From Leucoraja ocellata (taxonomy: Eukaryota): a stretch of DNA of 64,000 bases. Made by a program: the position numbers and the translations under genes. The DNA lies in assembly GCA_036785375.1 (NCBI GenBank), contig JAWMAR010000175.1, forward strand, positions 2,976,001-3,040,000, written 5' to 3'. The first letter of the stretch is position 1; each line of letters opens with the position of its first letter. The notes under the pieces are model-generated. The model did no database searches and was not told the origin of the DNA. It saw only the letters and a program-made list of their open reading frames with translations. Shown here one piece after another: positions 1,337 to 54,479 of this stretch.

Positions 1337-1910
1337 TAACGATTCCATTGTGTACCATCAGTAGTTTTCAACAAATAACCATGGTTGTATGTCATTATAT
1401 TTCATTTCAATATTGAAAGCTAATTGGAGAATGTGATGATTTCATTGATAATTCTTGGTCTGTTCCTATCGATAATGTGTACACTCACACTTCGTAACAT
1501 CTGATATTGCCCGAATCACTTGTTGTGCTATCTGGCGCACTCATTTACGCTATTGTCATGAAGCTGTTATTCCAATGCTCACCGTTTCCGTTCTTACAAA
1601 ACTAACCGTATCTAAAATAATTTTTGCCACTCAATATTTGTCACATTGTTCTCTTCTTATTCCCAGTTCACTAATATTTTAAATGTCATTGTTGTTTTAA
1701 AAATCCTGTCATGGCCCTGCCCCCGGGCTATGTCAGTAATCTCCCGAACCCTCGCATTCTTCAAGTTCTGTCTGCAATTACCATTTCAGCTATCAATTAA
1801 CATAACTGAATATCCAGATGTTCTGATCATTGCTGTCATTAGGAGACTGTTGTACACAAATGTCATCATTACCATCAGTGACTGCAGTCCAAGGAGTACA
1901 TATGTACATG

Positions 1911-2033
1911 CAGACAAAAGTGCTGGAGAAACTCAGTGGGTGCAGCAGCATCTATGATGCTGCTGCACCCGCTGAGTTTCTCCAGCACTTTTGTCTACCT
2001 TCGATTTTCAGCATCTGCAGTTCCTTCGTAAAC
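1911..2033. mobile_element. Palindromic Penelope-derived insert (family B)
   Basis: Inverted arms about GCAGCATC-TAT-GATGCTGC; 13-bp direct repeat ACATATGTACATG at 1898-1910 and 2034-2046. Confidence 0.85.
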
Positions 2034-2353
2034 ACATATGTACATGTGTCTCTCTTCCAAATCGGATCTAAATCCTGCTACCATTTGCCCAGACATCCAA
2101 TGTCAGGGTTAAACATACCTTGATAATGCATTAAGGAGTTTCATAAAGGACAAGCTGTCATATCTACCGGCAATGGAATAATGAAATTCTTACCGTCTGC
2201 AACTTTACAGGCCCGTAAGCACAATTCCACACAGATAGTGTGTAATGTTCAATAATACAATGAGTTAATAACCGTAATATTAGTTATCCATTAGAGTGCA
2301 AAACTGAAGTATGTAGTGGCAACCAACGAACATAGTTGCTGAGGTGGTAGTTA

Positions 2354-3512
2354 AGGCCTGTCCCACGAGCATGCGGACTGCATGCGGCGAGCGCGATCTA
2401 ACGTGGTCGCTTGAGCCGTGCGGCCTCGCGGGGCCGGTCCCACTTCGATCGCCGGAGCCGTGTGGAGCTGGTCCCGACATCGCGCGGGGCTCCGAAAAAC
2501 TGACACTGTCCGAAACTTCCGCGCGGCAACGGCCTGTCGGCCCGCAGCCGCATTGAGGCCGTACACAGCGCTCGAAGGGCGTGCGCAGCGTCTCGACGCC
2601 GTACGCAGCGTCTTGACGGCGTACGCCTAGCGCTGGAGGAACAACAGGCAGCGTCTGTGGAGGGAATGGACAGACAACGCCTCTTCAGACTGGATGGAGC
2701 TGATGGAGTAGAGGGGACAGGGCTAGAAAGGATGAGTAGTGATGGGCCACAGACTGGCAAATGCAGCACATGGTTGAAGAGCAGCAGGAATCTTAGAATA
2801 AAGGGGAGGCCATTTAAGAATGAGGTGAGAAAAAAACGTTTTCACCCAGAGAGTTGTGAATTTGTGAATTCCCTGCCATAGAGGGCAGTGGAGGCCAAGT
2901 CACTGGATGGATTTAAGAGAGAGTTAGATAGAGCTTTAGGGGCTAGTGGAGTCTAGGGATATGGGGAGAAGGCAGGCACGGGTTATTGATTGGGGACGAT
3001 CAGCCACGATCACAATGAATGGCGGTGCTGGCTGGAAGGGCCGAATGGCCNNNNNNNNNNNNNNNNNNNNNNNNNNNNNNNNNNNNNNNNNNNNNNNNNN
3101 NNNNNNNNNNNNNNNNNNNNNNNNNNNNNNNNNNNNNNNNNNNNNNNNNNNNNNNNNNNNNNNNNNNNNNNNNNNNNNNNNNNNNNNNNNNNNNNNNNNN
3201 NNNNNNNNNNNNNNNNNNNNNNNNNNNNNNNNNNNNNNNNNNNNNNNNNNTGGCGGTGCTGGCTGGAAGGGCCGAATGGCCTCCTCCTGCACCTATTTTC
3301 TATGTTTCTATGAATCACAGAGGGGGAGCAATGAGAGTCACAGGACTCCCATCAGAGAGAGGAGGGGGAGAACCTCTTCAAAGTCAGCACAGTTCAAAAG
3401 GTTCAAAGGTCAGTTTTGCGCGCATGGTGTGTGATGACATAGGCGGTGACGTACAAAATCTTTGCACGCCATCTGCATGACGCGCAAATGACGGCCTAGT
3501 AGGACAGACCCT
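2354..3512. mobile_element. Harbinger-type MITE ends (GC-rich subfamily) with nested Penelope and CR1 fragments and an N gap
   Basis: TTA-AGGCCTGTCCCAC at 2351 and GTAGGACAGACCCT-TAA near 3512; right end resembles 18291-18492; continuity across the gap is unproven. Confidence 0.55.
2790..3312 (+). mobile_element. CR1/HER1 LINE 3' end (spans gap)
   Basis: LRIKGRPFKNEVRK-like tail and 3' UTR GAAGGGCCGAATGGCCTCCTCCTGCACCTATTTTCTATGTTTCTATG. Confidence 0.85.
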
Positions 3513-4030
3513 TAAATCATCGCAGCGGAGATCAAACACGGCCATTCAAGTGAGCAGCAGCAATATTGAATGTTGTGGAAACAAATGTCAAATTTTCCCT
3601 TCCCTCCTGAATGACTGCTGAGTCATCTCTCTCTTATTGTGGATGAAAATAGATAACCAAAACATTGTCTCAGCAACTCAACAAAAAAGGCCAGAAATAT
3701 ATCTCTACTCTTTGAAACAAGATTGTACTGCCCTCAGAAATCAATGTTGGTGAATTTGGGCATATTTGTTTTTGATGGCCTCGTTCAATTGAGTAATACA
3801 ATTATCTGCACTGGGCCTTGGTAACATTAGTACTGCTTCATTCTTTGCCCATGATCTCCTGTGGAAATTCCCGGTCTCCAATGTTCAACGGTGTGCAGGT
3901 ACAGGCACCAGTAGCTCGAAAAAAGTTAAACATCATCATATTGTTTTCCAGCCATGTCTCTTGTACGTTTGCTAACAATACGTACTGACACCATCTTTAC
4001 AAAAACGGCTTTGCCAACGCTATCGTCATC

Positions 4031-4998
4031 GGGTGGCGCCATGCGTGGCAGCATCGCCAGCGGTGTGTCTGTCATTTTGACTTTTTCTGTATGTTTAAAT
4101 GTATGAATTAATGTTTCTTGGTGTGTTTTTATGTGGGGGGAGGGGGGGGGGGGGGGGAGGGGGGAAACCGTTTCCAGTCATTTACCTCGGCAGAGATACG
4201 ACTTTTCTCCGAGTCACATTTTAGTCCGCCCTCGCGGCCTAACAACTTAGATTGGTGCGGCCTTTCCCGGAGACGGCCCAGAGCTACAGCAGCAGGCGTG
4301 GCGGGGACTTAAAATCACAGCTCCGACCGGCAGCCTGATGACTTTAACACCATGAAGCCGCGGTCTGCGGAGCTTCTAGCAGCAGGCGTGGAGAGGACTT
4401 TACCATCCCAGAGCCAGGGATCCCTTGCTGGGGATCGCCGGAGAAGAGCTCCGACCGCAGGCCTGCCTGCGGCCTATATGGAGAAGCTGCGGAGCCTCCG
4501 GTAAGAAAGTGGCCGGTTCGGGCACTGCTAGTGTGTTCCATCCACCCCAACGTCGGAGTTTGATCGTCCCGACGAGAGGGCCTGTACATTGGGCCATCCA
4601 CAGTGGACACTACGGAGGGTCAAGGCCCCAAACATGGGTGAACAAAAGGAGGAAGACTGACTGAACTTTATTGCCTTACATCGCAGTGATCACTGTGGTG
4701 GATGGTTATGTTAAGTTCTATCGTTCTTGTAATTGTATGGCAGCTCGCTCAAAGCCCTGTCCCACATGCACGAGTAAATTACAAGAGCTAAAAAAAATCA
4801 AACTGGTGGTAAGAACGGAGAATGAACGTAGCGGGTACGTCGGAGCTCGCCATTACCGTAAATCACCGAGTTCGAATCAGGGCAAACTCGGGAGAGCTCT
4901 TGGAATGAACCCGTACCGTGGGACAGGGCTTTAACTCAAATATCACTTCACATTAATTGGTGCGATTGACAATAAATGTGAATCTGAATCTGAATCTA
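4031..4998 (+). mobile_element. GC-rich non-autonomous retroposon with Rex1-type tail (unclassified)
   Basis: Head GGTGGCGCC...GGCAGCATCGCC shared with 23106; internal GACTT...ATC...CTCCGACCG repeats; ends AATAAA-(TGAATC)n. Confidence 0.6.
4752..4931. mobile_element. Harbinger-type MITE (deleted copy) nested in the retroposon
   Basis: AAGCCCTGTCCCAC ... GTGGGACAGGGCTT; flanks TCA/TAA; interior homologous to 19628 and 30924. Confidence 0.85.
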
Positions 4999-5828: not shown

Positions 5829-5829
5829 G

Positions 5830-6135: not shown

Positions 6136-6352
6136 GAATCAAAATTTCAATTACTAGTCCTTTTTCACCACATTTTTTGCCAGCTATTACTTTTAAGTTA
6201 CCAATGCCCTCACATTGACTGGACCATTACCTGAGGTTTGGCAGCTCACCATCACAGCCTCTCACACTTACTATTGCCTCAAGACTCATGAAGCTCATAG
6301 ATTGTACACCACACAAGCACAGGTGGCATGTCACCCAAATATATTTCCAAAG

Positions 6353-6578
6353 CAACACACAAAATGCTGGAGGAACTCAGCAGGTCAGGCAGCATCTGTG
6401 GAGGGAATGGACAGGCGACGGCTCAGGTTGGGGACCCTCAATCTTACTTCCGCAGTCTGAAGAAGAATGTCAACTTGAAACACCATCTGCCCATTTCCTC
6501 CACAGATGCTGCCTGACCCGCTGAGTTCCTCCGGCACTTTGTGTTCTGTTCAAGATTGCAGCATCTGCAATGTTTTGT
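6353..6578. mobile_element. Degenerate palindromic Penelope-derived insert
   Basis: Inverted arms GCTGGAGGAACTCAGCAGGTCAGGCAGCATCTGTGGAGG / CCTCCACAGATGCTGCCTGACCCGCTGAGTTCCTCC, central AGTCTGAAGAAG. Confidence 0.75.
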
Positions 6579-6587
6579 TTCCTGGCC

Positions 6588-8340: not shown

Positions 8341-8596
8341 GTCGGAAAGGAGATTTATTTAAATGTAAAGCTGAGGATGCTGGACATTTCACTTTACAAA
8401 GTGTACTAGTCAGTTTACAAAACTACTTATAGAATGTATAAAATCCTTGGCTCCTCAAATTAAAAGCACATGTAAAAATACTAATAACAAACAATTAATT
8501 ATGCATTTGGAATTATGCATATTTAATGCATATTGTAAATATATGCATTAAATATGTATATAATGCATATGTAAATATTTAGTAGAATTTCCCAGT

Positions 8597-9250
8597 AGGG
8601 TGGTAAAGAAAGCTTTTGGTATGCTAGCCTTTATAAATCAGAGCATTGAGTATAGAATCTGGGATGTAATGTTAAAATTGTACAAGGCATTGGTGAGAGC
8701 AAATCTGGAGTATGGTGTACAATTTTGGTCGCCCAATTATAGGAAGGATGTCAACAAAATAGAGAGAGTACAGAGGACATTTACTAGAATGTTGCCTGGG
8801 TTTCAACAACTAAGTTACAGAGAAAGGTTGAATAAGTTAGGTCTTTATTCTCTGGAGCGCAGAAGGTTAAGGGGGGACTTGATAGAGGTCTGTAAAATGA
8901 TGAGAGAGATAGACAGAGTTGATGTGGACAAGCTTTTCCCTTTGAGAATAGGGAAGATTCAAACAAGAGGACATGACTTCAGAATTAAGGGACAGAAGTT
9001 TAGGGGTAACATGAGGGGGAACTTCTTTACTCAGAGAGTGGTAGTGGTGTGGAATGAGCTTCCAGTGGAAGTGGTGGAGGCAGGTATCATTTAAAAATAA
9101 ATTGGATAGGCATATGGATGAGAAGGGAATGGAGGGTTATGGTATGAGTGCAGGCAGGTGGGACTAAGGGGAAATAATTGTTCGGCACGGACTTGTAGGG
9201 CCGAGATGGCCTGTTTCCGTGCTGTAATTGTTATATGGTTATATGGTTAA
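8597..9250 (+). mobile_element. CR1/HER1 LINE ORF2 C-terminus and 3' UTR
   Basis: LYKALVRANLEYGVQFWSP...TRGH...FFTQRVV motifs; (TTATATGG)n tail. Confidence 0.9.
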
Positions 9251-9845: not shown

Positions 9846-10445
9846 GTGTAGGAAGGAACTGCAGATAGACACAAAATGCTGGAGTAACTCAGCGGGACAG
9901 GCAGCATCTCTGGAGAGAAGGAATGGGTGGCGTTTCGGGTGGAGACCCTTCTTCAGACTGGTTAGGGAAAAGGGAAACGAGAGATATAGACAATGATGTA
10001 GCGAGATAAAGAACAATGAATGAAAGATATGCAAAATATTAACGATGATAAAGGAAACAGGCCATTGTTAGCTGTTTGTTGGGTGATAACGAGAAGCTGG
10101 TGCAACTTGGGTGGGGGAGGGATAGAGAGAGAGGGAATGCCGGGGCTACCTGAAGTGAGGGAAATCAATATTCATACCACTGGGCTGTAAGCTGCCCAAG
10201 CGAAATATGAGATGTTGTTCCTCCAATTTGCGTTTAGCCTCACTCTGACAATGGAGGAGATGGAGGACAGAAAGGTCTGTGTAGGAATGGGAAGGAGAAT
10301 TAAAGTGTCTGGCAACCGGGAGATCAGGTTGGTTCAGGCGGGCTGAGCGAAGGTGTTCAGCGAAACGATCGCCCAGTCTACGTTTGGTCTCGCCGATGTA
10401 TACGAGTCCACATCTTGAACAATGGATGCAGTAGATGAGGTTGGA
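9846..10445 (-). mobile_element. Penelope-like element 3' part (GIY-YIG endonuclease, pLTR, hammerhead-like core)
   Basis: NLIYCIHCSRCGLVYIGETKRRLGDRFAEH...EEQHLI...GMNIDF; downstream CAGTCTGAAGAAGGGTCTCCACCCGAAAC. Confidence 0.9.
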
Positions 10446-11362
10446 GGAGATGGTCCAAGTAAATTTGAGTGCAGGATGAAAATTGGTGGTGAAGTTGATG
10501 AAGTCCATGAGTTCTGCCTGGGTGCAGGAGGTACCACCAATGCAGTCATCAATGTAACAGAGATGGAGTTCGGGGATAGGGTCAGCGTACACCTGGAACA
10601 GGGATTGGTGACTGCATCGGTGGTACCTCCTGCACCCAGGCAGAACTCATGGACTTCATCAAGTTCACCACCAATTTTCATCCTGCACTCAAATTTACTT
10701 GGACCATCTCCGACACCTCCCTCCCCTTTCTTGATCTCAGTCTCCATCACAAGAAATAGACTATTGACTGACGTCTATTACAAGTCCACTTCCCACCCTG
10801 CTTCCTGCACAGACTATTCCCTACTTCCAATTCCTCCATCTACGCTGCATCTGCGCCCAAGATAAGATGTTCCATACTGGAACATCTGAGATGTCCTCAA
10901 TCTTTAGGAAATGGGGGTTCCCCTCTCCCATCATAGATGAGGCCCTCACTCGTGTCTCCTCGGTACCCCGCAGTTCCGCCCTTGCTCCCCTTCCCCCCAG
11001 TCAGAGTCCCCCTTGTCCTTACCTTCCACCCCATCAGCGTCTCATGCAACACATAATACTCCGAAAATTCTGCCACCTCCAACAGAATCCCACCACGAGC
11101 CACAGCTTCCAATCTCCACCCCTTTCCACCTTCCGCAGAGACCGTTCCCTCCACAACTCCCTGGTTAACACATCCCTTCCCACCCAAACCACCCCCTCCC
11201 CAGGTACCTCCCCCTGCAACCGCAGAAGATGCAACACCTATCGCTAGACCTCCTCCCTCGACTCTGTCCAGGGACCCCGACAGTCCTTTCAGGTTAGGCA
11301 GAGGTTCACTTGCACCTCCTCCAACCTCATCTACTGTATCCGTTGTTCAAGATGTGGACTTC
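10441..11362 (+). mobile_element. Penelope-like RT/thumb fragment with an inverted duplicated 5' segment
   Basis: CYIDDCIG...FHPALKFTW on minus (10441-10590) mirrored on plus (10604-10710); continues TDVYYK...PCNRRRCNT...SSNLIYC. Confidence 0.85.
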
Positions 11363-11364
11363 TT

Positions 11365-11697
11365 ACACAAGGAACTACAGATCCTGGTTTACACCAAAGA
11401 TAGACACAAAATGCTGGAGTAACTCAGCGGGACAGGCAGCATCTCTGGAGAGAAGGAATGGGTGACGTTTCAGGTCGAGACCCTTCTTCAGACTGAGTCT
11501 GGGGAAAGGGAGACATTAGAGATATGGAATGGTAAGGTGTGAAAACACAGAACAAACCAAACCATCAGGAAATGCAAAACGGTTCATTGTTAGCAGAAGG
11601 TGGCATACAATCTGTGAAATGTGATCAGGACAGTGAAACTAGTCAGAGAACAAGGATGGGGGAGGGATGGAGAGAGAGGGAAGGCAAGGGTTACTTG
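11365..11697 (-). mobile_element. Penelope 3' UTR/pLTR fragment (family A)
   Basis: GACACAAAATGCTGGAGTAACTCAGCGGGACAGGCAGCATCTCTGG...GTCGAGACCCTTCTTCAGACTG. Confidence 0.8.
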
Positions 11698-11997: not shown

Positions 11998-12069
11998 AGC
12001 TTGAATTTAGAGAAATTAATATTCTATTCATGAAATGCGGGACAAAGGAAATGGAGAATTATGTCCAAT

Positions 12070-12520: not shown

Positions 12521-12565
12521 TCTACTTGTCAGGAAAATTAAGGATGTGGAAATTGGCATTTTAAT

Positions 12566-16654: not shown

Positions 16655-16717
16655 TATAACAAACATATTCACAAGGATAGAGGGCTTGTTAACATAAAAA
16701 CATGGACAGAAGTTTGT

Positions 16718-17415
16718 TGTTTAAGAAGGAACTGCAGATGCTGGAAAAGGTAGACAAAATTGCTGGAGAAACTCAGCGGGTGCAGCAGCATCTATGGAGC
16801 GAAGGAAATAGGCGACGTTTCGGGTCGAAACCCTTCTCCAGTTGTTTTTCCACCTTTTTTCCCTCTGACAGTAGAGGCAATGAACATTGATTTCTTCAAT
16901 GTCAAGTAAGACCCCCCCCCCCCCCATGCCTACCCCCTTGTCGTTCCTCTGTAGCCCACCCTGGTGTGCACACATTTGCCCACCATCTCCCACCTCCCCA
17001 GTCGCCCTTCTCCTTTCTCCTTCTCCATACGCTCATCTTCCATCCTCTAGTCCCACATTCCTCTTTTATTTCCACCCATAATCCCTCCCTCCAGCTTCAC
17101 ATTGCACTCCTCCTTTCCTCTACTGATCTGACACCTTTTTGTCTCCTTTTCACCTCCAGCCTTTGTCACTTCACCCATTTACCAACTGCCACTCTCGTCT
17201 GTACCCACCTATCACTTGCTAGGCTTTGTCCTATGCCCACATCTCCTTTCCAGCTTTCTTTCCCCTTACTCCATTAGTCTGAAGAGGGGGTCCCAACCCG
17301 ACAAACCCATTGTGTATCCATTGGGCCGACCCCTCCACAGATGCTGCCTGACCTGCTGGGATCATCCAACACTATGTGTTTGGCCTAGGTTCCAGCATTT
17401 GCAGTTCCTCGTTTC
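16718..17415. mobile_element. Composite Penelope fragments: family B arm (minus) and older 3' end (plus)
   Basis: GTTTAAGAAGGAACTGCAG arm 16718-16838; ATGAACATTGATTTC ORF end, pyrimidine-rich UTR, AGTCTGAAGAGGGG core. Confidence 0.7.
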
Positions 17416-17613
17416 CCCAGCAACCTGGAGATTTGTTGGCTTAATGTTGGTCGTGTTAATGTCACCAGAATCTACTGTCAGAAGACTGAGGAGGGGGTAG
17501 AGTGGCAGTAAAAAGCCTGAAGGCCTAGGCCTGTGTGCACTGTGGGATTACAGGCTGAAATCTAGCTCCATGATGCCCCATCTGCTCTGGCAGTAGGGAA
17601 TGGACGTGAAAGG

Positions 17614-17801
17614 TGTTTAAGAAGGAACTGCAGATGCTGGAAAATCGAAGGCACACAAAAATGCTGGAGAAACTCAGCGGGTGCAGCAGCATCTATGGAG
17701 CGAAGGAAATAGGCAACGTTTCGTCCCGAAACGTTGCCTATTTCCTTCGCTCCATAGATGCTGCTGCACCCACTGAGTTTCTCCAGCATTTTTGTGTACC
17801 T
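17614..17801. mobile_element. Palindromic Penelope-derived insert (family B)
   Basis: Arms inverted about CGTTTCG-TCC-CGAAACG; tail on left arm only. Confidence 0.85.
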
Positions 17802-18290
17802 TGGATGTGACAAGTCGCTTGAAAGACCAGAGGAGAGAATGATGGAAGTGGACATGTTTCAGAAATAGAGACAGTGGCATAAGGTTGAGGACAGGTAGTG
17901 TTCCCCTTGGTCCAAATAATGTATTCATGGTGCATATAAGAAGTGGTGCAGTGGTGAACATACATGGATAGGAAAGGATTCATGGATAGGGCTTTGAAAG
18001 TGGTGCTGAAAGCTGATGATTCTTGTCTCAGTGGACTATTTCTGTACACTTTGTACTTAATTTGGGATTATGCCTGCGTGTATTAATAATTTACTGATCT
18101 GTATGAAAAAAATATATAATTTCACTGACATGTGGCAATAAAGAATCATTGATGGTTTAGAGGGATATGGGCCAAATGTGGCAAATGAGACAAGCGTAGA
18201 TAGGCGATCTTGTTCAGCGTGGACGAGTTGGGCTAGTGGGCCTGTTTCCGTGCTGAAGGAAGAAATTCAAGCCCAACCTACAGGTACAGG

Positions 18291-18492: not shown

Positions 18493-18562
18493 TCGGGCCC
18501 TTGCCTGTGAGAAATGTAACATGATCGTTCTGCGATACTGACGAACTAATACTTGTCTCATT

Positions 18563-18784
18563 GTTTAAGAAGGAACTGCAGATGCTGGAGAATCGAAGGT
18601 TACACAAAAAAGCTGGAGAAACTCAGCGGGTGCAGCAGCATCTATGGAGCGAAGGAAATAGGCAACGTTTCGGGCCGAAACGTTTCGGGTCTGAAGAAGG
18701 GTTTCGGCCCGAAACGTTGCCTATTTCCTTCGCTCCATAGATGCTGCTGCACCCGCTGAGTTTCTCCAGCTTTTTTGTGTAACC
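18563..18784. mobile_element. Palindromic Penelope-derived insert with intact hammerhead core
   Basis: CTGAAGAAGGGTTTCGGCCCGAAACGTT at 18691-18718; direct repeat CTTGTCTCATTGT at 18552-18564 and 18784-18796. Confidence 0.88.
18691..18718 (+). ncRNA. Minimal type-I hammerhead ribozyme core (putative)
   Basis: CUGANGA, stem II GGGU-UUCG-GCCC, GAAAC, palindromic ACGU, GUU site; activity untested. Confidence 0.65.
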
Positions 18785-19627
18785 TTGTCTCATTGTCCTG
18801 TCTGCAGTGTATGAACATTGAAGTTAGTCGTGTATATCTGGAACTGTTTCCTGAACCGTAGGATATTGAGTGTTGTTCGGCAGTCTTTTGTCTTGGATTC
18901 CACAAGGTCATGTTATTTGTCAGCCTTCACCCATCTCTGGACATGTTCTATATCAGTTTCACATATCACTTTCTGTGGCTGTGGCCCGGTAAGTTTCATT
19001 AAGAATCATACCCTCATTCTGTGCCTGTTTGTGGAAAGATGATACCTGTTCCACATATGCCGTATATATGAATTCAAAAAATATTTTGACATTGTAAGGT
19101 TAGCACAATGAGGAACAGCAGTCATTTTTTCCAATTGATGCTATTAGTTTCTTCAATAACAAGCTGCAGTGGGGAACAAACCGGGTTATTATTTAAATGT
19201 AAATGGGTTAGCTCAAAAAGTTTGCCTCCAAACATCTCTTAACCCAAACCAACACTGGACCTATAGGATGGCACGATGGTACAAAGTCCCGCTAGGGCCT
19301 TTAGTTGTTTAGACTCCATCCAGGATATGACCTGGAACATTGAACATGCCTAAGGAGAGGTGTAGACTTTTAATAATATGACAAGTGGAATCCAAAAAAC
19401 AAGACTGATCATTGCAGAACAAGCAATCCATTCCTCTACAGTCTAGGAAACTGTTCCAGATAAACACCACCAACTTCTATGTATATATGGCATTTAATGA
19501 CATTTGGACAGGTACATGGATGTTAAACACAGTTAGGTGGGTGGGTCTATCTTGGATGGGACATCTGGCTTTGTATGGATGAGTTGGGCCTTCAATGCTT
19601 AGCTTTACTTATCATGTGCCAAACTAA

Positions 19628-29471: not shown

Positions 29472-30495
29472 GTAGGAAGGAACTGCAGATGGACCTGCTG
29501 TTTAAACCAAAGATAGACACAAAATGCTGGAGTAACTCAGCGGGACAGGCAGCATCTCTGGAGAGAAGGAATGGGCGACGTTTCGGGTCGAGACCCTTCT
29601 TCAGACTGGTTAGGGAAAAGTGAAACGAGAGATATAGTTGGTGATGTGGAGAGATAAGGAACAATGAATGAAAGATATGCAAAAAAGTAATGATGATAAA
29701 GGAAACAGGCCATTGTTAGCTGTTTGTTGGGTGATAACAAGAAGCTGGTGCGACTTGGGTGGGGGAGGGATGGAGAGAGAGGGAATGCCGGGGCTACCTG
29801 AAGTGAGGGAAATCAATATTCATACCACTGGGCTGTAAGCTGCCCAAGTGAAATATGAGATGCTGTTCCTCCAATTTGCGTTTAGCCTCACTCTGACAAT
29901 GGAGGAGACAGAGGACAGAAAGGTCTGTGTCAGAATGGAAAGGAGAATTAAAGTGTCTGGCAACCGGGAGATCAGGTTGGTTCAGGCGGGCTGAGTGAAG
30001 GTGTTCCGTGAAACGATCGCCCAGTCTGCGTTTGGTCTCGCTGATGTACAAGAGTTCACATCTTGAACAATGGATACAGTAGATGAGGTGCAAGTGAAGC
30101 TCTGCCTAACCTGAAAGGACTGTCGGGGTCCCTGGACGAGGGAAGAGTTACAGCGACAGGTGTTGCATCTTCTGCGGTTGCAGTGGAAGGTACCTGGGGA
30201 GTGGTTTGGGTGGGTAGGGACGAGTTAACCAGGGAGTTGCGGAGGGAATGGTCTCTGCGGAAGGTGGAAAGGGGTGGAGATGGTGGGATCCCGTTGGAGG
30301 TGGAGAAAATGTTGGAGGATTATGTGTCGTATGCGATGGCTGATGGGGTGGAGAGGAAGGACTAGGGGGACTCTGTCTCTGTTGCGATTGGGGGGAGGGG
30401 GAGCAAGGCGGAGCTGCGAGACACTGAGGAGACACGAGTGAGGGTCTCATCTATGATGGGACAGCTGGGGGTTCCCTAAAGACTGAGAACATCCC
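29472..30495 (-). mobile_element. Penelope-like element 3' part (family A)
   Basis: LIYCIHCSRCELLYISETKRRLGDRFTEH (GIY-YIG); intact core CTGAAGAAGGGTCTCGACCCGAAACGTC on minus at ~29577-29604. Confidence 0.9.
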
Positions 30496-34519: not shown

Positions 34520-35100
34520 GGTATAGAGTTATACAGCACGGAAAGAGGCCCTTCGGCCCAACTCGCCCCATCTATTCTCCTCATGATTTTATGACAGATC
34601 GTTCCATAGATTCACTGCCCTCTAAGTGAAAAGTTTCCCCTCAGGTTTGTACTAAATCTTGTCCCTCCCACTTTAAACCTATTCCTGGTTCTTGACTCCC
34701 CTACTCCGTGTTAAACATCACATACATTAACCCTATCTATTCCCCTCATGATCTGATACATCTCTACAAGATCACCCCTTCAGCCTCCTGCACTCCAAGG
34801 AATAGTGTCCTAGTCTGCCCCAACCTCTCCTTGTAGCCCAGCCCCTCAAGTCCTGGCAACATCCTTGAAAATCTTCTCTGCGCTTTTTCCAACTTAATGA
34901 CATCCTTCCGACAACAGAGTGAGCAAAACAGATGACAATATGTCTGAAGAAGGGTTTCGGCCCGAAACGTTGCCTATTTCCTTCGCTCCATAGATGCTGC
35001 TGCTGCACCCGCTGAGTTTCTCCAGCATTTTTGTGTACCGACAATATGCTGCATGTGGCCTTACTAATGACTTGTAAAACCGTGACATAACAACCCAACC
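34520..35100 (-). mobile_element. CR1-type LINE fragment interrupted by Penelope insert
   Basis: FYKSLVRPHAAYC split at 34943-35039; LGHYSLECRRLKG. Confidence 0.75.
34943..35039 (+). mobile_element. 97-bp single-arm Penelope-derived insert starting at the hammerhead core
   Basis: TCTGAAGAAGGGTTTCGGCCCGAAACGTT...GTGTACC; 9-bp TSD GACAATATG at 34934-34942 and 35040-35048. Confidence 0.88.
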
Positions 35101-35985
35101 TCTCTACTTAACATGGTCACAAAGTGCTGAAGTAACTCACTGGCTCAGGACCATCTCTGGAGAAAAAGGACGGGCAATGTTTTGGGTCAGTCTGAAGAAG
35201 GGTCCTGACCCAAAATGGCGGCCATCCTTTTTCTCCAGAGATGATGCCCGACCCGTTGAGTTACTCCAGCATTTGTGTCTATCTTCGGTATAAATCAGCA
35301 CCTGCAATTTTTCGTTGCTGCACTCTGTACTGATGAAGGCCAATGTACCGAAAGCCTTCTGTCTATTCTAGACACAAAATGCTGGAGTAACAGCGGGTCA
35401 GGCAGAATCTCTGGATGAAAGGAATAGGTGGCGTTTTGGGTGGGACCCCTTCTTCAGACTAAACAGGGTCGGCAACAGATGACCTCAGGAAGGGCGGACT
35501 CCATAATGGACCTCAGTTCCTACCTACGCATTCTGACCATGTGATATTGTTTTATCATTACTGGGGAGAACGTGAGTGGTATTGTGTGAAAAATGACTTT
35601 GTTATGTTGCTTCTTGTTCCATCACGAAGCCCCAAGCGTTTTCAGTTCCACTTTCAGTGCGTAGCTGGTGTGAGGGCACACACAAGCACTGTGTGGAAAC
35701 TGTGAAGATGGATAACAACAGGCCTCTTGTGAGCCAGCACAAAAACACTGCCACCATCTACAGAAAAATAGCTGCAACCTCTGCTCGGTAAATCTTAGAG
35801 ACACGAGGAACTGCAGGTGCTGGAATCGTGAGCAAAATGCAATGTACTGGAGGAACTCAGTGGGTCAGGCAGCATCTGTGAAGGCAATGAAGGGCCACGC
35901 CCCGGAACGTTGCCTGTCAATTGCCCCCACCGATGCTGCATGACCCCGCCGAGTTCCTCCAGCACTGTGTGTTCTTTGCACAAAG

Positions 35986-36920: not shown

Positions 36921-37486
36921 GTTTAAGAAGGAACTGCAGATGCTGGAAAATCGAAGGTAGATAAAAATGCTGGAGAAACTCAGCGGGTGCAGCAGCATCT
37001 ATGGAGCGAAGGAAATAGGCAACGTTTCGGGCCGAAACCCAAAGGGTTTCGGCCCGAAACGTTGCCTATTTCCTTGTGTAAAATCATCCACATATTTTAT
37101 TAACGTACTTTCTAAGGGTATGCCTTCCAAATCTGCCTTTAATATCTGATTGAAGACATGGGGTGAGTGTTTGAATCCCTGCGGCATCCTAGTATAGGTG
37201 TATTGAGTACCTCTACAGGTAAAACCAAACAAATACTGACCTTGCTCTGCTAAGGGTACAGTGAAGAATGCGTAGGGTGGGGGGGGGGGGGGGGAGCGGG
37301 AGGAAGAAAGGAAGAGGAGCCAGAGGGTTGAGGGAGAGCTGACCCACCCTACATCAGTCTGAGGAAGGGTTTCAGCCCAAAACGTTGCCTATTTCCTTCC
37401 CTCCATAGATTCTGCTGCACCCGCTGAGTTTCTCCAGCATTTTTATCTACCTTCGATTTTCCAGCATCTGCAGTTCCTTCTTAAAC
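36921..37486. mobile_element. Composite Penelope family B insert enclosing a foreign fragment
   Basis: Outer ends GTTTAAGAAGGAAC ... GTTCCTTCTTAAAC inverted; several internal orientation switches. Confidence 0.85.
37081..37272 (-). pseudogene. pol: Orphan endogenous-retrovirus reverse-transcriptase core fragment
   Basis: AFFTVPLAEQGQYLFGFTCRGTQYTYTRMPQGFKHSPHVFNQILKADLEGIPLESTLIKYVDD: AFF, PQG..SP and YVDD motifs with retroviral spacing. Confidence 0.88.
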
Positions 37487-37624
37487 ATGATGGAGTAACT
37501 CGGCAGGTCAGGCTCTGGAGACAAAGGATAGGTGTCCGTATTCTCCAGAGATGCTGCCTGAGCCACTGAGTTACTCCAAACTTTCTTTGCTGGAGCAGGC
37601 GTGGTGATACGGTGCATGGGGAGT

Positions 37625-42017: not shown

Positions 42018-42760
42018 CAAGGAGGACTCTCTCGAACTTCTACAGGTGCACAGTAGAGAACATGCTGACCGGTTGCATCGTGGCTTGGTTCGGCAACTTG
42101 AGCGCCCTGGAGAGGAAGAGACTGCAAAAAGTTGTACACACTGCCTAGTCCATCATCGGCTCTGACCTCCCTACCATCGAGGGGATCTATCACAGTCGCT
42201 GCCTCAAAAAGGCTGGCAGCATCATCAAGGACCCACACCATCCTGGCCACACACTCATCTCTCCGCTGCCATCGGGTAGAAAGTACAGGAGCCTGAAATC
42301 TGCAACATCCAGGTTCAGGAATAGCTACTTCCCCACAGCCATCAGACTATTAAACACTACTTCAAACAAACTCTGAACTATAACAACCTACTGCAATTTA
42401 TCTTCAAGAAGGAACTGCAGATGCTGCAAAATCGAAAAATGCTGGATGGAAGAAGGGTTTCGGTCCGAAACGTTGCCTATTTCCTTCGCTCCATAGATGC
42501 TGCCTCACCCACTGAGTTTCTCCAGCATTTTTGTCTACCTTCGATTTTCCAGCATCTGCAGTTCCTTCTTAAACTTTTAGTCTACCTTGCACTCTATCTG
42601 TTTATTTATGTGTGTGTTTATATAATATCTATGGTTATATGGACACACTGATCTGTTCTGTATTCATGCCTACAATATCCTGTTGTGCTGCAGCATGCAA
42701 GAATTTTGTTGTCCTATCTGGGACACATTACAATAAACTCTCTTGACTTGACTTGACTTG
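42018..42760 (+). mobile_element. Rex1-type LINE 3' fragment with nested Penelope family B insert (42405-42573)
   Basis: FYRCTVENMLTGCIVAWFGN...IIKDPHHPGH..LPSGR; (TTGAC)n tail. Confidence 0.8.
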
Positions 42761-43427: not shown

Positions 43428-44160
43428 TAAGAAATGTGAGGAAGGACATCCTTGTGATTGAGGCAGTGCAGCGTAGGTTCACGAGATTGATCCCTGGGAT
43501 TGCGGGACTGTCATATGAGGAAGGATTGAAAAGACTAGGCTTGTATTCACTGGAGTTTAGAAGGATGAGGGGGGAATTATAGAAACATAAAATTATAAAA
43601 GGACTGGACAGGCTAGATGCAGGAACAATGTTCCCAATGTTGTGCGAGTCCAGAACCAGGGGCCACAGCCTTAGAATAAGGGGGAGGCCATTTAAGACTG
43701 AGGTGAGAAAAAACGTTTTCACCCAGAGAGTTGTGAATTTGTGGAATTCCCTGCCACAGAGGGCAGTGGAGGCCAAGTCACTGGATGGATTTAAGAGAGA
43801 ATTATGCCCCTGTCCCACTTAGGAAACCTGAACGGAAACCTCTGGAGACTTTGCGCCCCACCCAAGGTTTCCGTGCGGTTCCCGGAGGTTTTTGCCAGTC
43901 TCTCTACCTGCTTCCACTACCTGCAACCTCCGGCAACCACCTGCAACCTCCGGGAACCGCACAGAAACCTTGGGTGGGGCGCAAAGTCTCCAGAGGTTTC
44001 CGTTCAGGTTTCCTAAGTGGGACAGGGGCATAAGATAGAGATCTAGGGGCTAGTGGAGTCAAGGGATATGGGGAGAAGGCCTGCACGGGTTATTGATTGG
44101 ACCATGATCACATGCTGGCTCGAAGGGCTGAATGGCCTCCTCCTGCACCTATTTTCTATG
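43428..44160 (+). mobile_element. CR1/HER1 LINE 3' fragment interrupted by a MITE
   Basis: TRGHSLRIRGRPFKTEVRK...FKREL | DR.LGASG continues after 44030. Confidence 0.9.
43805..44030. mobile_element. Young near-perfect foldback MITE (Harbinger-type)
   Basis: ~85-bp inverted arms TGCCCCTGTCCCACTTAGG...; flanks TTA/TAA. Confidence 0.92.
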
Positions 44161-44872
44161 TCTAAGTGAAACCCTCAATGTTTGAAATTTGTTCTTTAAA
44201 ATAAAATGTGTCTGGTTAATAAAATAAGTCCAAATGTTGAATACTGAGTGGAATCAATGAATGATGTTAGCCCTCAAGATAATGTTGTTAACTGGAATAA
44301 ACTGTGCTGTAATCAAGCAGTGATAGACGTTGGTGATGTCGCTCAGTCTGGATACCAAGTTCAGTTGATAAAGTGTAAAACTCACAACTTTCCATGGCAA
44401 TGAAACCCACTAAATCAAAGATAACCAGAGATTCTAGTTATAAAGAGTGTAAAAGCTATATATTTAGGATGGTGATGCATTCTATTTCCAAATAGAGATG
44501 GAAGGGAGATATCGTAACTCCCACAGCCAAGATTCTGATTTGGATCACGTTGATTTACTGATACTGATATGCAGCGATATGTAACGGTGACTATTAGTAG
44601 AAAAAGAGCTGAAGATCTTTGTCAGATTCTCAAATATACACTCCCTTTACACCACATCTGAAAGATATTTTTTGCAAGAGAGACTGATACAAACATTACT
44701 ATAAGGCAATGGTTTTGAAATGAAAATCTTTACCTATTTTAAACAGTTGAGAATGAACATACAGCGGGTTTATCCATTTATCAATCAACGTGAAAATAAT
44801 CCTCAAACTTAGTTAATCATCGCTGTAAAAATATGAAAAGCTTTCATGTTCCTTTTGTAAATCATACAAGCC

Positions 44873-45046
44873 GAAGATAGGCACAAAAAGCTGGAGTAAC
44901 TCAGCGGGACAGGCAGCATCTCTGGAGAGAAGGAATGGGTGACGTTTCGGGTTGAGATCCTTCTTCAGACTGAAACGTTACCCATTCCTGCTCTCCAGAG
45001 ATGCTGCCTGTCCCGCTGAGTTACTCCAGCTTTTTGTGTCTATCTT
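44873..45046. mobile_element. Palindromic Penelope-derived insert (family A)
   Basis: AAGATAGGCACAAAAAGCTGGAG ... CTCCAGCTTTTTGTGTCTATCTT inverted about CTTCAGACT-GAAACG. Confidence 0.85.
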
Positions 45047-46277
45047 GGGAAGAAACCGCCCCTGAATCTGGAGATGTGCGTTTTCTTGCCGGATGGGAGA
45101 GGGGAGAAGAGGGAGTGGCCGGGGTGCAACACATCTTTAATTATGCTGCTGGCCTTGTCGAGGCAGCGTGAGGTTTACATGGCTCTATAAAAGGGTTGGT
45201 CTGGGCTGCGTCTACATTTCCCTGATCTCTGATCTCTCCCTCTGTCTCTGCACTCAGCACCAAGTCCAGGGGCATTCCTGGTCACCTTATTTGTATCGAC
45301 CAGCCATAGGTTGAACATTGAGAGTGACCACAACATTGGCAACAAACCTTTAACCTTCACTGAAAAGGTATTCTGTTTTAATACTTAACTAATACTAGTA
45401 TTTATATTGTGTAATTGTATTTAACTAAATTTATAATTAGAGCAAGATAAACCAATATCCAACTCATTACATGAGATCTGTCGATTACAAATAAATAAAT
45501 TAAAGACTTTAATTTTTTTTTAGGATTCCGCATTTTGAAGGAAATAAAAGTCTATTAATTTATTTGTTTTTAAACTCTTTTCTTCCCCATTGGGCAGAGA
45601 ATACAAAGATTTGAACGCACGTATCACGAGACTCAGGAAATGATTGTTCCCTGCTGTTATTACAATATTGAATGGTCCTCCCATAAGCTAGGGTGTAGTC
45701 CCGATCTTCCAATCTACCTCAATGCACACCTTGCACTTTTTCTCTGGAACTGAATGCTATAATGCTGAAAGACTATATTCTGCACTCTGGTATGTTTCTC
45801 TTAACACTGCCTCCTTCCTATCAATATCCTATAAAATGTCAACTAATGCATAATAAAGTTTGCAAAAGCTTGTTGAAACAAACTTTCAGATCCTGCAGTC
45901 AAATGAAAGAAACAGCCAAATGAGAAGCATCCTAATCATTTTAATCCTAAGAAAATTGGAGTGTGTGTGTGTTTTGTGCAGCTCCTACAGCAGCCAACAT
46001 AATTGCAACAAGTTAACAAAAGGAACATTTAAATTAAGTTTTCGAAACATTTCTAAAGTTTGAAGGTTTTGGCAAATTGTAAAGGCATTGTTCTCGAAAC
46101 ACAGACTTCAAACAGAATTACTCAGTGGGTCAGGCAGCATCTCTGGAGGAAAAGGGGTGACGTTTGGGGTCGGGACTAAATTTAAGGAGGGTCCCTTTCC
46201 TTCTCTCCAGAGATGCTGCCTGGCCCGCTGAGTTACTCCAGCATTTTGTGTCTATCCTGGTTTTACAGAGATGTATA

Positions 46278-46662: not shown

Positions 46663-47685
46663 TATACTTGACTGGCATCACCTGAATAAAGATGAAGAAT
46701 GTTTTTAAGTTCTGACAAGTGGGACAACCACCGATAGGTGGCAGAGAGTCACACTGGGAAATCCGTGGGATGGGAGGGGTGGCAAGCTGCACATGGAAAG
46801 ATGCTTCACTGGGCTGTCATAGACTGTATATGAGTCACAAATGAAATTAAGATCATGTTCCTACCTACAGGTTTTGGTGTTCCCCCAACAACACACACAA
46901 GAAAGTTTCCAAAGTGCAGCAAAAATAGAAATCAACATGAAATTTATCAGCTGGTCTGGCAATAGTCAAATGTTACAGAGAGAGGGCAGGAGAACGGGGT
47001 TGAGAGAGATCAGTCATGATCAAATGGCGGGTTAGTCTCGATGGGCCGAACAGCCTAATTCTACTCCTATGACTTATGAAGATGAACATAGAACAGTACG
47101 GCACAATAACAGCCCACAATGTCCATGCTGAACATGAAGCCAAGATTAACTCTTGTTTGCCTGCGTGTGGTTCAAATCCCCCCATCCCCTGCATGTCCAT
47201 GTGCCTATCCAAAAGCCTCTTAGACACCTCTATGGTATCTGCCTCCACCACCACCCCCAGCAGCACGTTCCAGGCACCCACCGCTCTCTGTGTAAAAAAC
47301 TTGCCCCCCATATCTCCTTTAGACTTTGCCCCTCTCACCTGAAAACTGTACCCTCTAGTTCAGGACTATGCCCTGAAGAAAGGTCTCGACCCAAAATGTC
47401 GCCAATTCCTTCTGTCCAGAGATGCTGCCCGACCCGCTGAGTTACTCCAGCTTTTTGTGCCTATCTTCCCTCTAGTTTATGATTTTCCCACCCTGGGAAA
47501 AAAGCTCCGACTTTCCATCCTATCAATGCATCTCACAATTTTACAAACTTCTCTCAGGTCTCCCTGGTGTTCCAGGGAAAAACAACCTCTCTCTGTAGCC
47601 AAGACCTGCTCATCGCAGCTTTTCTTTGGAAAGGGTTGGAAATGTACAAGATCTTGAGAACGGGGCTGATGAGCCTCCTCCTGTA

Positions 47686-48340
47686 CCATAGAAACATAGA
47701 AACATAGAAAATAGGTGCAGGAGGAGGCCATTCGGCCCTTCGAGCCAGCACCGCCATTCATTGTGATCATGGCTGATCGTCCCCAATCAATAACCCGTGC
47801 CTGCCTTCACCCCATATCCCTTGATTCCACTAGTCCCTAGAGCTCTATCTAACTCTCTCTTAAATCCAGCCAGTGACTTGGCCTCCACTGCCCTCTGTGG
47901 CAGGGAATTCCACAAATTCACAACTCTCTGGGTGAAAAAAGTTTTTCTCACCTCAGCCTTAAATGGCCTCCCCTTTATTCTAAGACTGTGGCCCCTGGTT
48001 CTGGACTGGCCCAACATTGGGAACATTTTTCCTGCATCTAGCTTGTCCAGTCCTTTAATAATTTTATAAGTTTCTATAAGAATCCCCCTCATCCTTCTAA
48101 ACGCCAGTGAATACAAGCCTAGTCTTTCCAATCTTTCCTCATATGACAGTCCCGCCATCCCAGGGATCAATCTCGTGAACCTACGCTGCACTGCCTCAAT
48201 CACAAGGATGTCCTTCCTCAAATTCGGAGACCAAAACTGGACACAATACTCTAGATGTGGTCTCACCAGAGCCCTATACAACTGCAGAAGAACTTCTTTA
48301 CTCCTATACTGAAATCCTCTTGTTGTGAAGGCCAACATTC
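47686..48340 (-). mobile_element. CR1/HER1 LINE 3' fragment
   Basis: Open ORF2 C-terminus 47787-48340. Confidence 0.9.
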
Positions 48341-48408
48341 CAGGCACCAACCAGAGACCAATTTGCAACAGGGATACGCTTGCAGCTAATATTTAAAGTG
48401 AAGTGGAA

Positions 48409-48816
48409 AATAAAACGTTGCAGTCTGCCACAAAACTATTATCTGCTCACATTTCTAACAACTAACTCGGCCATTCTTGCGAGTCACACTCCAAAATGTG
48501 ACCATTGCACTCCAATGAGATTACAGGATTAAGATGTTTTTTTCTTGAGGCTTACATGAATTAATACAAAGGTAGGCACAAAATGCTGGAGTAACTCAGC
48601 GGGTGAGGCAGCATCTCTGGAGAGAAGGAATGGGCGATGTTCGCCCATTCCTTCTCTCCAGAGATGCTGCCTCACCCGCTGAGTTACTCCAGCATTTTGT
48701 GTCTACCTACGATTTAAACCAGCATCTGCAGTTCTTTCTTACACCTGAATGAATGCGTGCCTACCATACGTAATGTACCTTCCATTCTTGAGCCACGTGG
48801 CTTCTGAGGCCTTCGT
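48409..48816 (+). repeat. Source copy of a local duplication (contains palindromic Penelope insert at ~48569-48743)
   Basis: Near-identical to 50224-50537. Confidence 0.9.
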
Positions 48817-48834
48817 TTGTGATAGAAATATTGC

Positions 48835-50019: not shown

Positions 50020-50792
50020 GTTTATCCCTGGAGGGAGACCGCTTTTCAGGGCTCTCGCAACGGTGACTTCTCCCGCCCGAGTTGCGGGGTTGAAGAGCTC
50101 CTGGAGCGGGGCCTTCATCACTGCCCCGCGCGGCTTGGAATGGCCGCGGGACTCTGCGAGCGCACGCCGGGGGCTCTGACACCAAGACCCGGTGTGCGAC
50201 CTTGCATCACCCGGCGTGGCTTTAATAAAACGTTGTAGTCTGCCACAAAACTATTATCTGCTCACATTTCTAACAACTAACTCAGCCATTCTTGCGAGTC
50301 CCACTCCAAAATGTGACCATTGCACTCCAATGACAAAGGTTTACATGAATTAATACAAAGGTAGGCACAAAATGCTGGAGTAACTCAGCGGGTGAGGCAG
50401 CATCTCTGGAGAGAAGGAATGGGCGATGTTCGTTTTAAACCAGCATCTGCAGTTCTTTCTTACACATGAATGAATGCATGCCTACCATACGTAATGTACC
50501 TTCCATTCTTGAGCCACGTGGCTTCTGAGGCCTTCGTGGCTTTAATGGCCGCGGGACAATCGCCATCGCCAGCCGGGGCTTTGACTTTGACTCTGACATG
50601 GGGGGGGGAGAGTGCAGTGGAGAGATAAGTTTATTTGGCCTTCCATCACAGCGATGTGATGGATGTTTATGTAAATTATGTTGTGTCTTGGGTCTATGTG
50701 TTTGTAATGTATGGCTGCAGAAACGACATTTCGTTTGGACCTCAAGGGGTCCAAATGACAATTAAATGTATCTTGTATCTTGTATCTTGTAT
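50020..50792 (+). mobile_element. GC-rich retroposon 3' part interrupted by duplicated local DNA
   Basis: GC-rich repeats TGGCCGCGGGAC, CCGGGG-CTYTGAC; tail (TATCTTG)n. Confidence 0.6.
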
Positions 50793-52890: not shown

Positions 52891-53004
52891 TGTGTCCTGC
52901 GTTCTATAAATGGACAAACTATGCACACTATACCCTGATTCTAAATGAAGCTGGAAGGTGAAATCAAGGATCCTCAACCTCCTGGGCAAGTTGTAAACTA
53001 CCAT

Positions 53005-53291
53005 TTTAGTTTGGTTTCGAGATACAGCATGGAAACAGGACTTTCTGCCCATCCAGTCCCTGCCAACCAGCCATCACCAATACACAAGTTCTATCCTACA
53101 AACCAGGGACAATTTTTTTACAGAAGCCAATTCACCTACAAACCCGCACGTCTTTGGAATGTGGGAGGGAACTGGAGCACCCGGAGGTCATGGGGAGAAC
53201 GGGCAAACTCTGTACAAACAGCACTCATAGTCAGGATTGAACCTGGGTCTCTGGCGCTGTAAGGCAGCAACTCTACCACAGTGCCACCGTG
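53005..53291 (-). mobile_element. HE1-type SINE
   Basis: Minus-strand tRNA-like head with GGTTCAATCC. Confidence 0.85.
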
Positions 53292-53983
53292 AACTAACAT
53301 TTGTGGGTTTGCAAGTAATTCTTGGCATCCTGTTGCCAGCTCCTTCTCACACCATTCACATATTTACCCCCCCCCCCCCCCCCCCTCTCTGACCATTGTC
53401 TGTCGGCATAACTTCAATGAAGTCCTGGAAACAGCCTGAAGCTGCCAGCTGCCTGCGGAAACTCCGACACATGTTAATTTTACTCCCATCTACAGTCACT
53501 GTGTTTGCAGCAGCTTAGAACTGGTATACATGGGGCAATCTAAAGCTTCTTACCAGGATGTTAAATATGTTCTGTTTACCTCTGGTATTTTGTTGATATA
53601 TTATTTTCAAAAAGGAAAAGTGAAATCCAATATTAAATTAAAATTCAATTAAATTATATTAAATTAAAACTGTAGATGTCATAACATAGCACTAACCTCA
53701 GCAACGATGATCTTCTACAGACTGTGTCTTAGCTTGCACTACCCACCTTGGTTTTTGCATTGTTTTGGTTACCGAGTATGATGTATATTAATTTATTGTA
53801 TTGTTGATTATATATTTATCTGTGTGTTATTGTTTTCAGGGTTGTTGAGAGTGGGGATTTCATTGTTCCGTTACTGATATACACAGCAATTAAACACCAA
53901 TGTACCGACAACAGAGCAATTACATTCTTCTCCCTGCATCTAAACAGCCCCACGAATAACGCATTGATAATATAGAATAGTAT

Positions 53984-54086
53984 GTAGACAAAAGTGCTGG
54001 AGAAACTCAGCGGGTGCGGCAGCATCTATGGAGCAAAGGAAATAGGCAACGTTTCGGGCCGAAACCCTTCTTCGAAACTATTCTTC
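53984..54086 (-). mobile_element. Single-arm Penelope family B insert
   Basis: 10-bp TSD AGAATAGTAT at 53974-53983 and 54087-54096. Confidence 0.85.
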
Positions 54087-54479
54087 AGAATAGTATATTA
54101 TGTTATAAAACACTATCATATATTTTATACACATATATTTCATATGCAATAATACTATAGACAACAATAATATATTTTTAATAAAATGCAGTACACATTG
54201 GTTTTTGTCAAGCATTTTCACTAAATAAATAAATTATGGATGAAATAGAAATATATTATTTTAGAATATACTTTGGGATATGATGCAGAACGACTAAATC
54301 CAACACTGATGTTTTTCAGGCATTTGACACATTAATGACCGAATATTTTAATTATGTTAGCAATATAGACGTCATGTGCCGTTAACTTATTAAATATTGT
54401 TCATTAAATCACTTTTACAAAGCCGATGTTATTTTAGCTTTCCATGATAAAAAAAATCCTATATTGCCCCTGATTTATT

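Follow-up and report, generated by a model that had tools for sequence, protein, structure and literature searches.

How do retroelement copies of little more than a hundred base pairs enter a genome, and what makes some of them palindromes? The question is raised by a 64,000-nt stretch of the skate Leucoraja ocellata (GenBank assembly GCA_036785375.1, contig JAWMAR010000175.1, positions 2,976,001 to 3,040,000), here called the window, a repeat-rich piece of eukaryotic DNA with three N gaps that carries short inserts related to Penelope-like elements (PLEs). An original prediction, made from the sequence alone, regarded these inserts as Penelope-derived hairpins flanked by target-site duplications (TSDs), each palindrome being one integration event primed from both target strands rather than a miniature inverted-repeat transposable element (MITE). 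The inserts are a real feature and represent a scaled-down form of a PLE insertion type already known, in which each palindrome results from a single integration. Moreover, priming of complementary DNA (cDNA) by both target strands is the favoured explanation of the palindromes and probably the right one.

The repeat was searched for in the 64-kb window using nhmmer and a hidden Markov model built from 14 arms, which gave 51 matches covering 7.6% of the window. These comprise one young subfamily at eight loci and several older subfamilies, with 13 independent head-to-head pairs in all (Table 1). Coordinates on the repeat refer to the young-family consensus, where the C of CTGAAGA is +1. The four TSD-flanked loci listed initially (1911, 18563, 34943 and 53984) and the palindrome at 17614 are genuine, although the list overlooked the young loci 16720, 36921-37486 and 42403-42588 as well as the older subfamilies. 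Likewise, the hairpin form ascribed to them applies to 1911, 17614 and 18563 but not to 34943 and 53984, which are both single arms.

The direct repeats of 9-13 bp described at the four loci are all exact, with 13 bp at 1898-1910/2034-2046 and at 18552-18564/18784-18796, 9 bp at 34934-34942/35040-35048, and 10 bp at 53974-53983/54087-54096. Random flank pairs from the window yield repeats of at least 9 bp in 0.24% and of 13 bp in 0.03% of trials. Exact repeats of at least 9 bp occur at six of the 25 loci tested, one of 8 bp and one of 7 bp being found at two others. The eight young loci include four exact TSDs of 9-13 bp, one of 7 bp, two degraded ones and, at 36921, none. Exact TSDs measure 7, 9, 10, 10, 11, 13 and 13 bp and degraded ones 12-15 bp, lengths that are upper bounds, with repeats overlapping the element ends by up to 5 nt (4-5 nt of the tail end at 16716..16847, 2-3 nt of each arm end at 18552..18796). 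Degraded TSDs, sought at 10 loci with hand-chosen boundaries and two mismatch levels, enclose the pairs at 17614, 42403 and 48563/50352; the 17614 palindrome has no exact TSD, only a degraded one of 9 bp with one mismatch or 14 bp with three.

The outer ends of the arms fall at two fixed points, as predicted, namely an inner end at +93 and an outer end at +128 of the consensus, and the 35 nt between them constitute the tail. Seven young tailed arms end at +128 and one at +127, while tailless arms end between +90 and +95; the left arm at 1911, for instance, stops at +90, 3 nt short and with one extra base. The same two points delimit single arms, palindromes and copies that bear open reading frames (ORFs). 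The base following the tail end is A in six of seven young tailed copies, which might reflect an extra templated base or a target preference. Inversion centres do differ from copy to copy, lying near +46/+50 at 1911 (with 1-nt microhomology and a loop supplied by the tailless arm), between +11 and +20 at 17614 (inside a 6-bp hairpin of the element itself), and at -1/+11 at 18563. A tail on one arm only, noticed at 1911, 17614 and 18563, is confirmed there but is not a rule, since two young palindromes are tailed on both arms. Eleven of the 13 independent pairs can be scored, the other two being eroded, and the duplicate at 50352 is left out as well: eight have one tail, two have two and one has none. 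A strict one-arm rule was rejected, as 8/11 compares with 5.5 expected under independent choice (P = 0.11); one-arm tailing is thus common, without being shown to exceed chance. The duplicate belongs to a local duplication (48409-48816/50224-50537) with flanks about 97% identical, which carries the same palindrome in different deletion states.

Whether both arms of a palindrome arrived together can be judged from their flanks and their variants. A single TSD surrounds both arms at 1911 and at 18563, with no inner TSD, and private variants match between arms in all four young palindromes tested, 42403 being excluded because its left arm is too short. Among 24 left-right permutations and 105 matchings of these four, none fits as well as the true arm pairing; this corresponds to 1/24 with one diagnostic column and to P = 0.083 without it. 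A pairing of older-family arms (P = 0.017) was not used, as it reflects mostly subfamily structure. Independent arrival of arms from a mixed pool is excluded, and the shared private variants and the one TSD around both arms uphold the proposal of one integration per palindrome. Two separate insertions at one spot in opposite orientation, by self-targeting and followed by gene conversion, would be in keeping with the ability of an anole PLE to nick its own pseudo-long terminal repeat (pLTR) in vitro, as given in the available text of PMC11167929, with the head-to-head neighbours of different PLE subfamilies at 16720/17274 and 29472/30524, and with the young copy abutting an old palindrome at 37487. 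However, this course of events is very improbable in view of the same intact TSDs and matching variants. Still less credit can be given to a pLTR-derived palindromic master that a DNA transposase moved as a MITE and whose centres eroded later, which we consider to have next to no likelihood. The inserts are short, non-coding, hairpin-forming and TSD-flanked, and at 50352 a deletion within the palindrome did follow insertion, all of which would fit such a master. Nevertheless, there are five TSD-bounded single arms, 8/11 palindromes have ends 35 nt apart instead of symmetric terminal inverted repeats, TSDs range over 7-15 bp, and neither length nor centre is uniform, each young palindrome having a centre of its own. 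Moreover, several subfamilies display the same set of structures, and ORF-bearing copies share both end points. The earlier rejection of a MITE therefore stands.

According to the double-priming account, the inserts are products of retrotransposition that contain the pLTR only. The PLE protein would cut the two strands of AT-rich DNA at points some 7-15 bp from each other, and reverse transcription would start at either of two fixed RNA sites 35 nt apart, often aided by 1-5 nt of primer-template pairing; the end points and TSDs behind this step are observed, and its chemistry follows in vitro results for an anole PLE. Priming of one strand would leave a single arm, tailed or tailless. If both strands were primed, two antisense cDNAs would grow toward each other and could be joined head to head through microhomology, their own small hairpin or filler bases, resulting in a TSD-flanked palindrome with a variable centre. 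Microhomology at the seven TSD-bounded young priming junctions amounts to 9 nt against 2.4 expected (P = 0.005), or to 12 nt (P = 0.0003) if the common A after the tail is counted, and 2-3 nt are present at both ends of 18563. The main rival is fold-back or self-priming, in which a strand pairs with itself at a short internal palindrome and serves as its own template for a hairpin; the one-sided tail would then be due to asymmetric resolution by the endonuclease or to a stop of synthesis at the inner site. As far as the available text of these papers goes, self-priming has been proposed for PLE inverted structures (Arkhipova 2013, PMC3846280) and the tail has been ascribed to endonuclease resolution (Craig 2021, PMC8557442). 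Fold-back would also account for the variants common to both arms, the 17614 centre in an intrinsic hairpin and the loci tailed on both arms. However, a copy cannot gain a tail absent from its template, so that the template must carry the tail and tailless centre donors are not possible by simple fold-back; yet the tailless arm donated the centre in five of seven decidable cases (1911, 17614, 18563, 35801 and 48563), with 56748 a tie. This arm extends further 5' in 3/3 young and 5/7 palindromes overall (P = 0.45 against even odds). Furthermore, the end points of tailless arms and of single-arm inserts agree, primer microhomology is present at the former, and both tail boundaries are reverse transcriptase (RT) start sites in vitro (available text of PMC11167929). 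Fold-back is thus regarded as unlikely, and priming from both target strands, which the original prediction put forward, is favoured by the centres, the microhomology and the arm ends.

The small size of the inserts appears to be connected to a fixed 5' boundary. The 5' ends of all five TSD-bounded single arms (16720, 34943, 53984, 47373 and 61717) lie within -5 to +3. The same holds for 9 of the 12 non-palindromic arms scored (P ~2e-6 against a uniform distribution over -5..+60), and the leading arm also ends there in 7/13 palindromes. For the clustering test the 5' end positions were entered by hand, and the count leaves out six untranslated region (UTR)-bearing arms, 524, 2631 (uncertain upstream), 33842 (beside a gap), 57072 (tail-only) and 30524. 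Most copies would be tiny because the cDNA ends where the RNA does, at a fixed 5' end a little upstream of the hammerhead-like CTGA motif. The boundary resembles an initiator motif, and this likeness, together with the transcript start of Drosophila Penelope, points to run-off at the RNA 5' end, probably a transcript start in an upstream pLTR, as the likeliest cause of the clustering. In Drosophila, Penelope transcripts start inside the upstream pLTR, according to the available text of PMC2377424. Two other causes were rejected: ribozyme cleavage, as no 5' ends cluster at the expected cleavage position of about +25, and a splice acceptor at the boundary, as the arms have no upstream exon in common.

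Several observations weigh against double priming or against parts of its support. Sharing of variants between arms is also expected under fold-back or gene conversion, and the inverted neighbours of different subfamilies imply that some inverted pairs arise separately, by insertion next to older copies. The tailed arm is the centre donor at 6345 and 35107 (2/7), and the call at 17614 rests on one versus two mismatches. At 50352, most of one arm of the duplicate was deleted once the insert was in place; a centre can therefore be secondary, which weakens the centre test. The 36921 locus lacks a TSD, and in old copies without a TSD a diverged and unrecognised UTR could mimic the fixed 5' end. 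Finally, no coding body of the young subfamily occurs in the window, and among paralogous host repeats within this one window no empty site was found for 25 loci, nor for four that were re-tested.

If double priming is accepted, it is conceivable, although rather doubtful, that the two start sites let one RNA serve both strands, such that the dimer subunit at the inner site would lead, the subunit at the outer site, 35 nt behind, would displace it, and both would proceed to the 5' end of the RNA and run off, yielding strong-stop-like products. If true, this scheme would cover the one-sided tail, the inverted pLTR, the tailless lead, the short inner-start copies beyond a tail (42575-42588, perhaps 17610-17614) and the many tiny copies. 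No statement of it was found in the literature searched, in which PLE papers were incompletely covered.

Some loci are more complex. The one at 42392..42599 has a 13-14 nt copy of the inner end (42575-42588) beyond the tail but still within the degraded TSD, which looks as though synthesis had begun at the inner site and then moved to the outer one; positions 17610-17614 may be a 5-nt case of the same kind or part of the 14-bp TSD. The locus 36921-37486 consists of two tailed arms with a common variant, a 34-nt sense piece (37042-37075), an RT fragment of retrovirus type and an inverted, purine-rich, UTR-like piece (37274-37342), probably the 3' UTR of the element. The RT fragment is of fish retrovirus type, at 77% to its best match, and its relatives have RNase H and murine leukaemia virus (MLV)-type integrase C-terminal domains. 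Neither a long terminal repeat (LTR) nor a TSD of its own was found at this captured fragment (37076-37273), which makes a separate later insertion unlikely, and the simplest reading is that the whole locus was made by repeated template switching.

The attribution to Penelope is best founded for the older subfamily, whose pLTR directly follows GIY-YIG ORFs, with a 3' UTR common to the copies in between, at three places (9849, 29472 and 63233). This linkage, together with the putative hammerhead-type start, identifies the repeat, as judged from sequence, as the pLTR of an endonuclease-positive (EN+) PLE, as originally predicted; for the young subfamily a Penelope origin is inferred by homology, its consensus aligning to the 29472 copy with 117 matches, 18 mismatches and 10 gap positions. 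Features of EN+ PLEs that are present comprise a GIY-YIG domain linked to the repeat, an optional tail of 30-40 bp and inverted, 5'-truncated pLTRs with a TSD of variable length. Pfam GIY-YIG matches lie at 10149-10646 (E 1.5e-4) and 29797-30105 (E 5.5e-3), both slightly below the curated cut-off, and a further GIY-YIG ORF at 63820-63999. Among relatives of the GIY-YIG fragment, a protein of Leucoraja erinacea ranks first (79%), ahead of those from rays and sharks. RT is present only as fragments, and a whale shark relative (66% identity) has RVT_1 plus GIY-YIG. A Cys-rich motif, found in the ORF at 10768-11247 and in the proteins P0003 and P0004, corresponds to the Cys-rich linker that joins RT and GIY-YIG in relatives. 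Since a Cys-rich segment between RT and the endonuclease is a Neptune feature (Arkhipova 2013, PMC3846280, available text), the linker suggests elements of Neptune type. No partial-tandem full-length PLE copy was found in the window.

In an alignment of 22 arms, the start of the repeat fits a putative minimal hammerhead, with CUGAnGA, one bulged base, helix II, GAAA and a palindromic CG. Helix II is 88.6% paired, with covariation not above shuffles, and helix I has only about 2 bp; no Rfam hammerhead match occurs in the window at E<=1, and five arms that were folded did not exceed shuffles in stability (z -0.1 to -1.5). The read-through C-terminus of P0003, a predicted zebra shark protein, seems by eye to encode a similar hammerhead-type pLTR start, which hints at the same layout in sharks. 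Inverted ORF pieces continue from the 9849..10646 copy to 11360, and the region 9849-11525 has a second pLTR, which comes with a different UTR, and among its inverted pieces a stretch of 108 nt duplicated in opposite orientation at 97% (10446-10553/10604-10711).

Much of this architecture has precedents. Canonical PLE insertions are described, in the available text of PMC3846280 and PMC8557442, as head-to-head inverted pLTRs with an 8-10 bp TSD around the unit, a tail of 30-40 bp, often at one end only, and unrelated sequence captured between the pLTRs; the statement that Penelope makes inverted pLTRs and an optional 3' tail thus agrees with published PLE features. In Pen2a_Av and other canonical PLEs (Arkhipova 2013; Craig 2021), the inverted pLTRs, TSD, one-sided tail and capture resemble those of the skate inserts, whereas the latter are mostly 100-230 bp long without coding sequence, number 51 matches per 64 kb, have TSDs of up to 13-15 bp and have 5' ends clustered at one boundary. 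PAc, a Poseidon element of Anolis, cuts and extends both strands in vitro, has two RT start sites that delimit the tail, is a predicted dimer and uses AT-rich targets (Frangieh 2024, PMC11167929, available text). The two fixed start sites and AT-rich targets are shared by the skate inserts, but PAc initiates without target homology, whereas the inserts, which come from Neptune-like elements, show an enrichment of short microhomology; the available main text on PAc offers no double-priming origin for genomic palindromes. Minimal hammerheads from truncated PLEs occur as thousands of single motifs per genome, some of which form opposite-strand pairs at distances of 100-700 bp (Cervera and de la Pena 2014, PMC4209133). 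These dispersed motifs appear to share CUGAnGA, the bulged base, helix II, GAAA and the palindromic CG with the skate repeat, in which helix I seems to have only about 2 bp, and in the available part of that account they are described without analysis of TSDs, tails or junctions. Non-LTR retrozymes (bioRxiv 10.64898/2026.07.22.740005, available text) are likewise short, non-coding and pLTR-related, with a type I hammerhead motif, and occur in a chondrichthyan; however, they form head-to-tail tandems of units that each carry a hammerhead, whereas the skate inserts are single or head-to-head, with no head-to-tail tandem among the 51 matches in the window.

In L1 twin priming, reportedly proposed by Ostertag and Kazazian in 2001, both target ends prime cDNA. 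As in the skate model, there is one TSD and an inverted junction formed via end repair, but in L1 the second primer pairs with an internal site and there is little overlap between the two pieces, whereas both skate arms start at the 3' start sites of the element, beginning at +90..+95 or +128 and overlapping by 40-85 nt, unlike L1-type products. L1 twin priming is cited in bioRxiv 10.1101/2024.12.14.628481 (available text). Inverted pLTRs, 8-10 bp TSDs, one-sided tails and opposite-strand hammerhead pairs are already in print, in the available text of the papers cited above, and double priming of palindromes extends published in vitro results. An explicit double-priming account of PLE palindromes, a centre-donor test and a fixed 5' boundary were not found in the literature, a weak absence given that older PLE-structure papers were not covered, and nothing relevant was found there on skate PLEs or palindromes. 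The formation of inverted pLTRs and one-sided tails is described as unresolved in the available text of PMC8557442, with self-priming (PMC3846280) and internal initiation on both strands (PMC11167929) as the models on the table. In copies as small, dense and young as these, the two priming junctions and the centre all lie within about 200 bp, so that counts of tail asymmetry, centre donors, end microhomology and 5' ends in a single skate genome could settle which model holds. In addition, structure-based tools could label such palindromes as MITEs or microRNA (miRNA) hairpins; Rfam miRNA matches in the window are sub-threshold.

Table 1. Penelope-derived inserts and associated features, in window coordinates.
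Feature	Position	Strand	Description
Young palindrome	1898..2046	.	tailless left arm 1911-1956, tailed right arm 1956-2033, 13-bp TSD
Young single arm with tail	16716..16847	-	5-nt deletion; 5' end ~+1; 7-bp TSD
Young palindrome	17601..17815	.	left arm tailed, starting at 17615; right arm tailless, ending at 17800
Young palindrome	18552..18796	.	left arm tailed, extending 5' to +11; right arm tailless, extending to -1; 7 nt of filler between them; 13-bp TSD
Young single arm, tailless	34934..35048	+	9-bp TSD, 5' end at -1
Complex young locus	36921..37486	.	tailed arm at each end; no TSD found
Retrovirus-type RT fragment	37076-37273	-	open, 198 bp; inside young 36921 locus
Young locus	42392..42599	.	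short tailed left arm, full tailed right arm; degraded 12-bp TSD (2 mismatches)
Young single arm, tailless	53974..54096	-	10-bp TSD, short filler at 5' junction
Older palindrome	6345..6579	.	left tailless, right tailed; tailed arm extends further 5'
Older palindrome	35107..35316	.	left tailless, right tailed; tailed arm extends further 5'; 4-nt centre microhomology
Older palindrome	35799..35983	.	left tailed, right tailless; tailless arm extends further 5'
Eroded older palindrome	37487..37583	.	abuts young 36921 locus; tail state not scorable
Older palindrome	44871..45045	.	both arms tailless, private variant in common, 4-nt centre microhomology
Older palindrome	46116..46263	.	left end eroded; tail state not scorable
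Older palindrome	48554..48756	.	tail on right arm only; degraded TSD of 12-15 bp; tailless arm supplies the loop
Duplicate of 48554 locus	50343..50478	.	right arm mostly deleted later; not counted as independent
Older palindrome	56748..56998	.	left tailless, right tailed, both reach 5' boundary; ~23-nt filler
Older single arm, tailless	47351..47477	+	10-bp TSD, 12-nt filler, 5' end +1
Older single arm, tailed	61707..61862	+	11-bp TSD, 5' end ~-4
Older PLE 3' end	9849..10646	-	RT-thumb/GIY-YIG ORF fragments, 3' UTR, pLTR, tail partly deleted
Older PLE 3' end	29472..30475	-	Cys-rich linker, GIY-YIG, 3' UTR, tailed pLTR
Older PLE 3' end	63233..64000	-	GIY-YIG end, interrupted 3' UTR, tailless pLTR

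The window has other features as well. A separate family at 894-1335, 19627-19926 and 43802-44033 has symmetric terminal inverted repeats of 47-89 bp with a CCTGTCCCACT-type motif, and related ends lie near 2356 and 31523; its members look like true MITEs. Numerous 3' fragments of long interspersed nuclear elements (LINEs) are scattered through the stretch, for example those at 8564-9094, 36092-36586, 47787-48392 and 59283-59909 and those at 20290-20838 and 37635-38153, which we take to be of CR1 and REX/L2 type. A match to a hepatitis delta virus (HDV)/CPEB3-like ribozyme at 28663-28727 (+) scores 33 bits against a gathering score of 35. Finally, an exon-sized match to the CD3 zeta transmembrane segment (Pfam TCR_zetazeta, E 5e-9, above the cut-off) occurs at 731-793 (-), within the ORF at 314-811, and much of the window may be intron or flank of a CD247/FcR-gamma-like gene.

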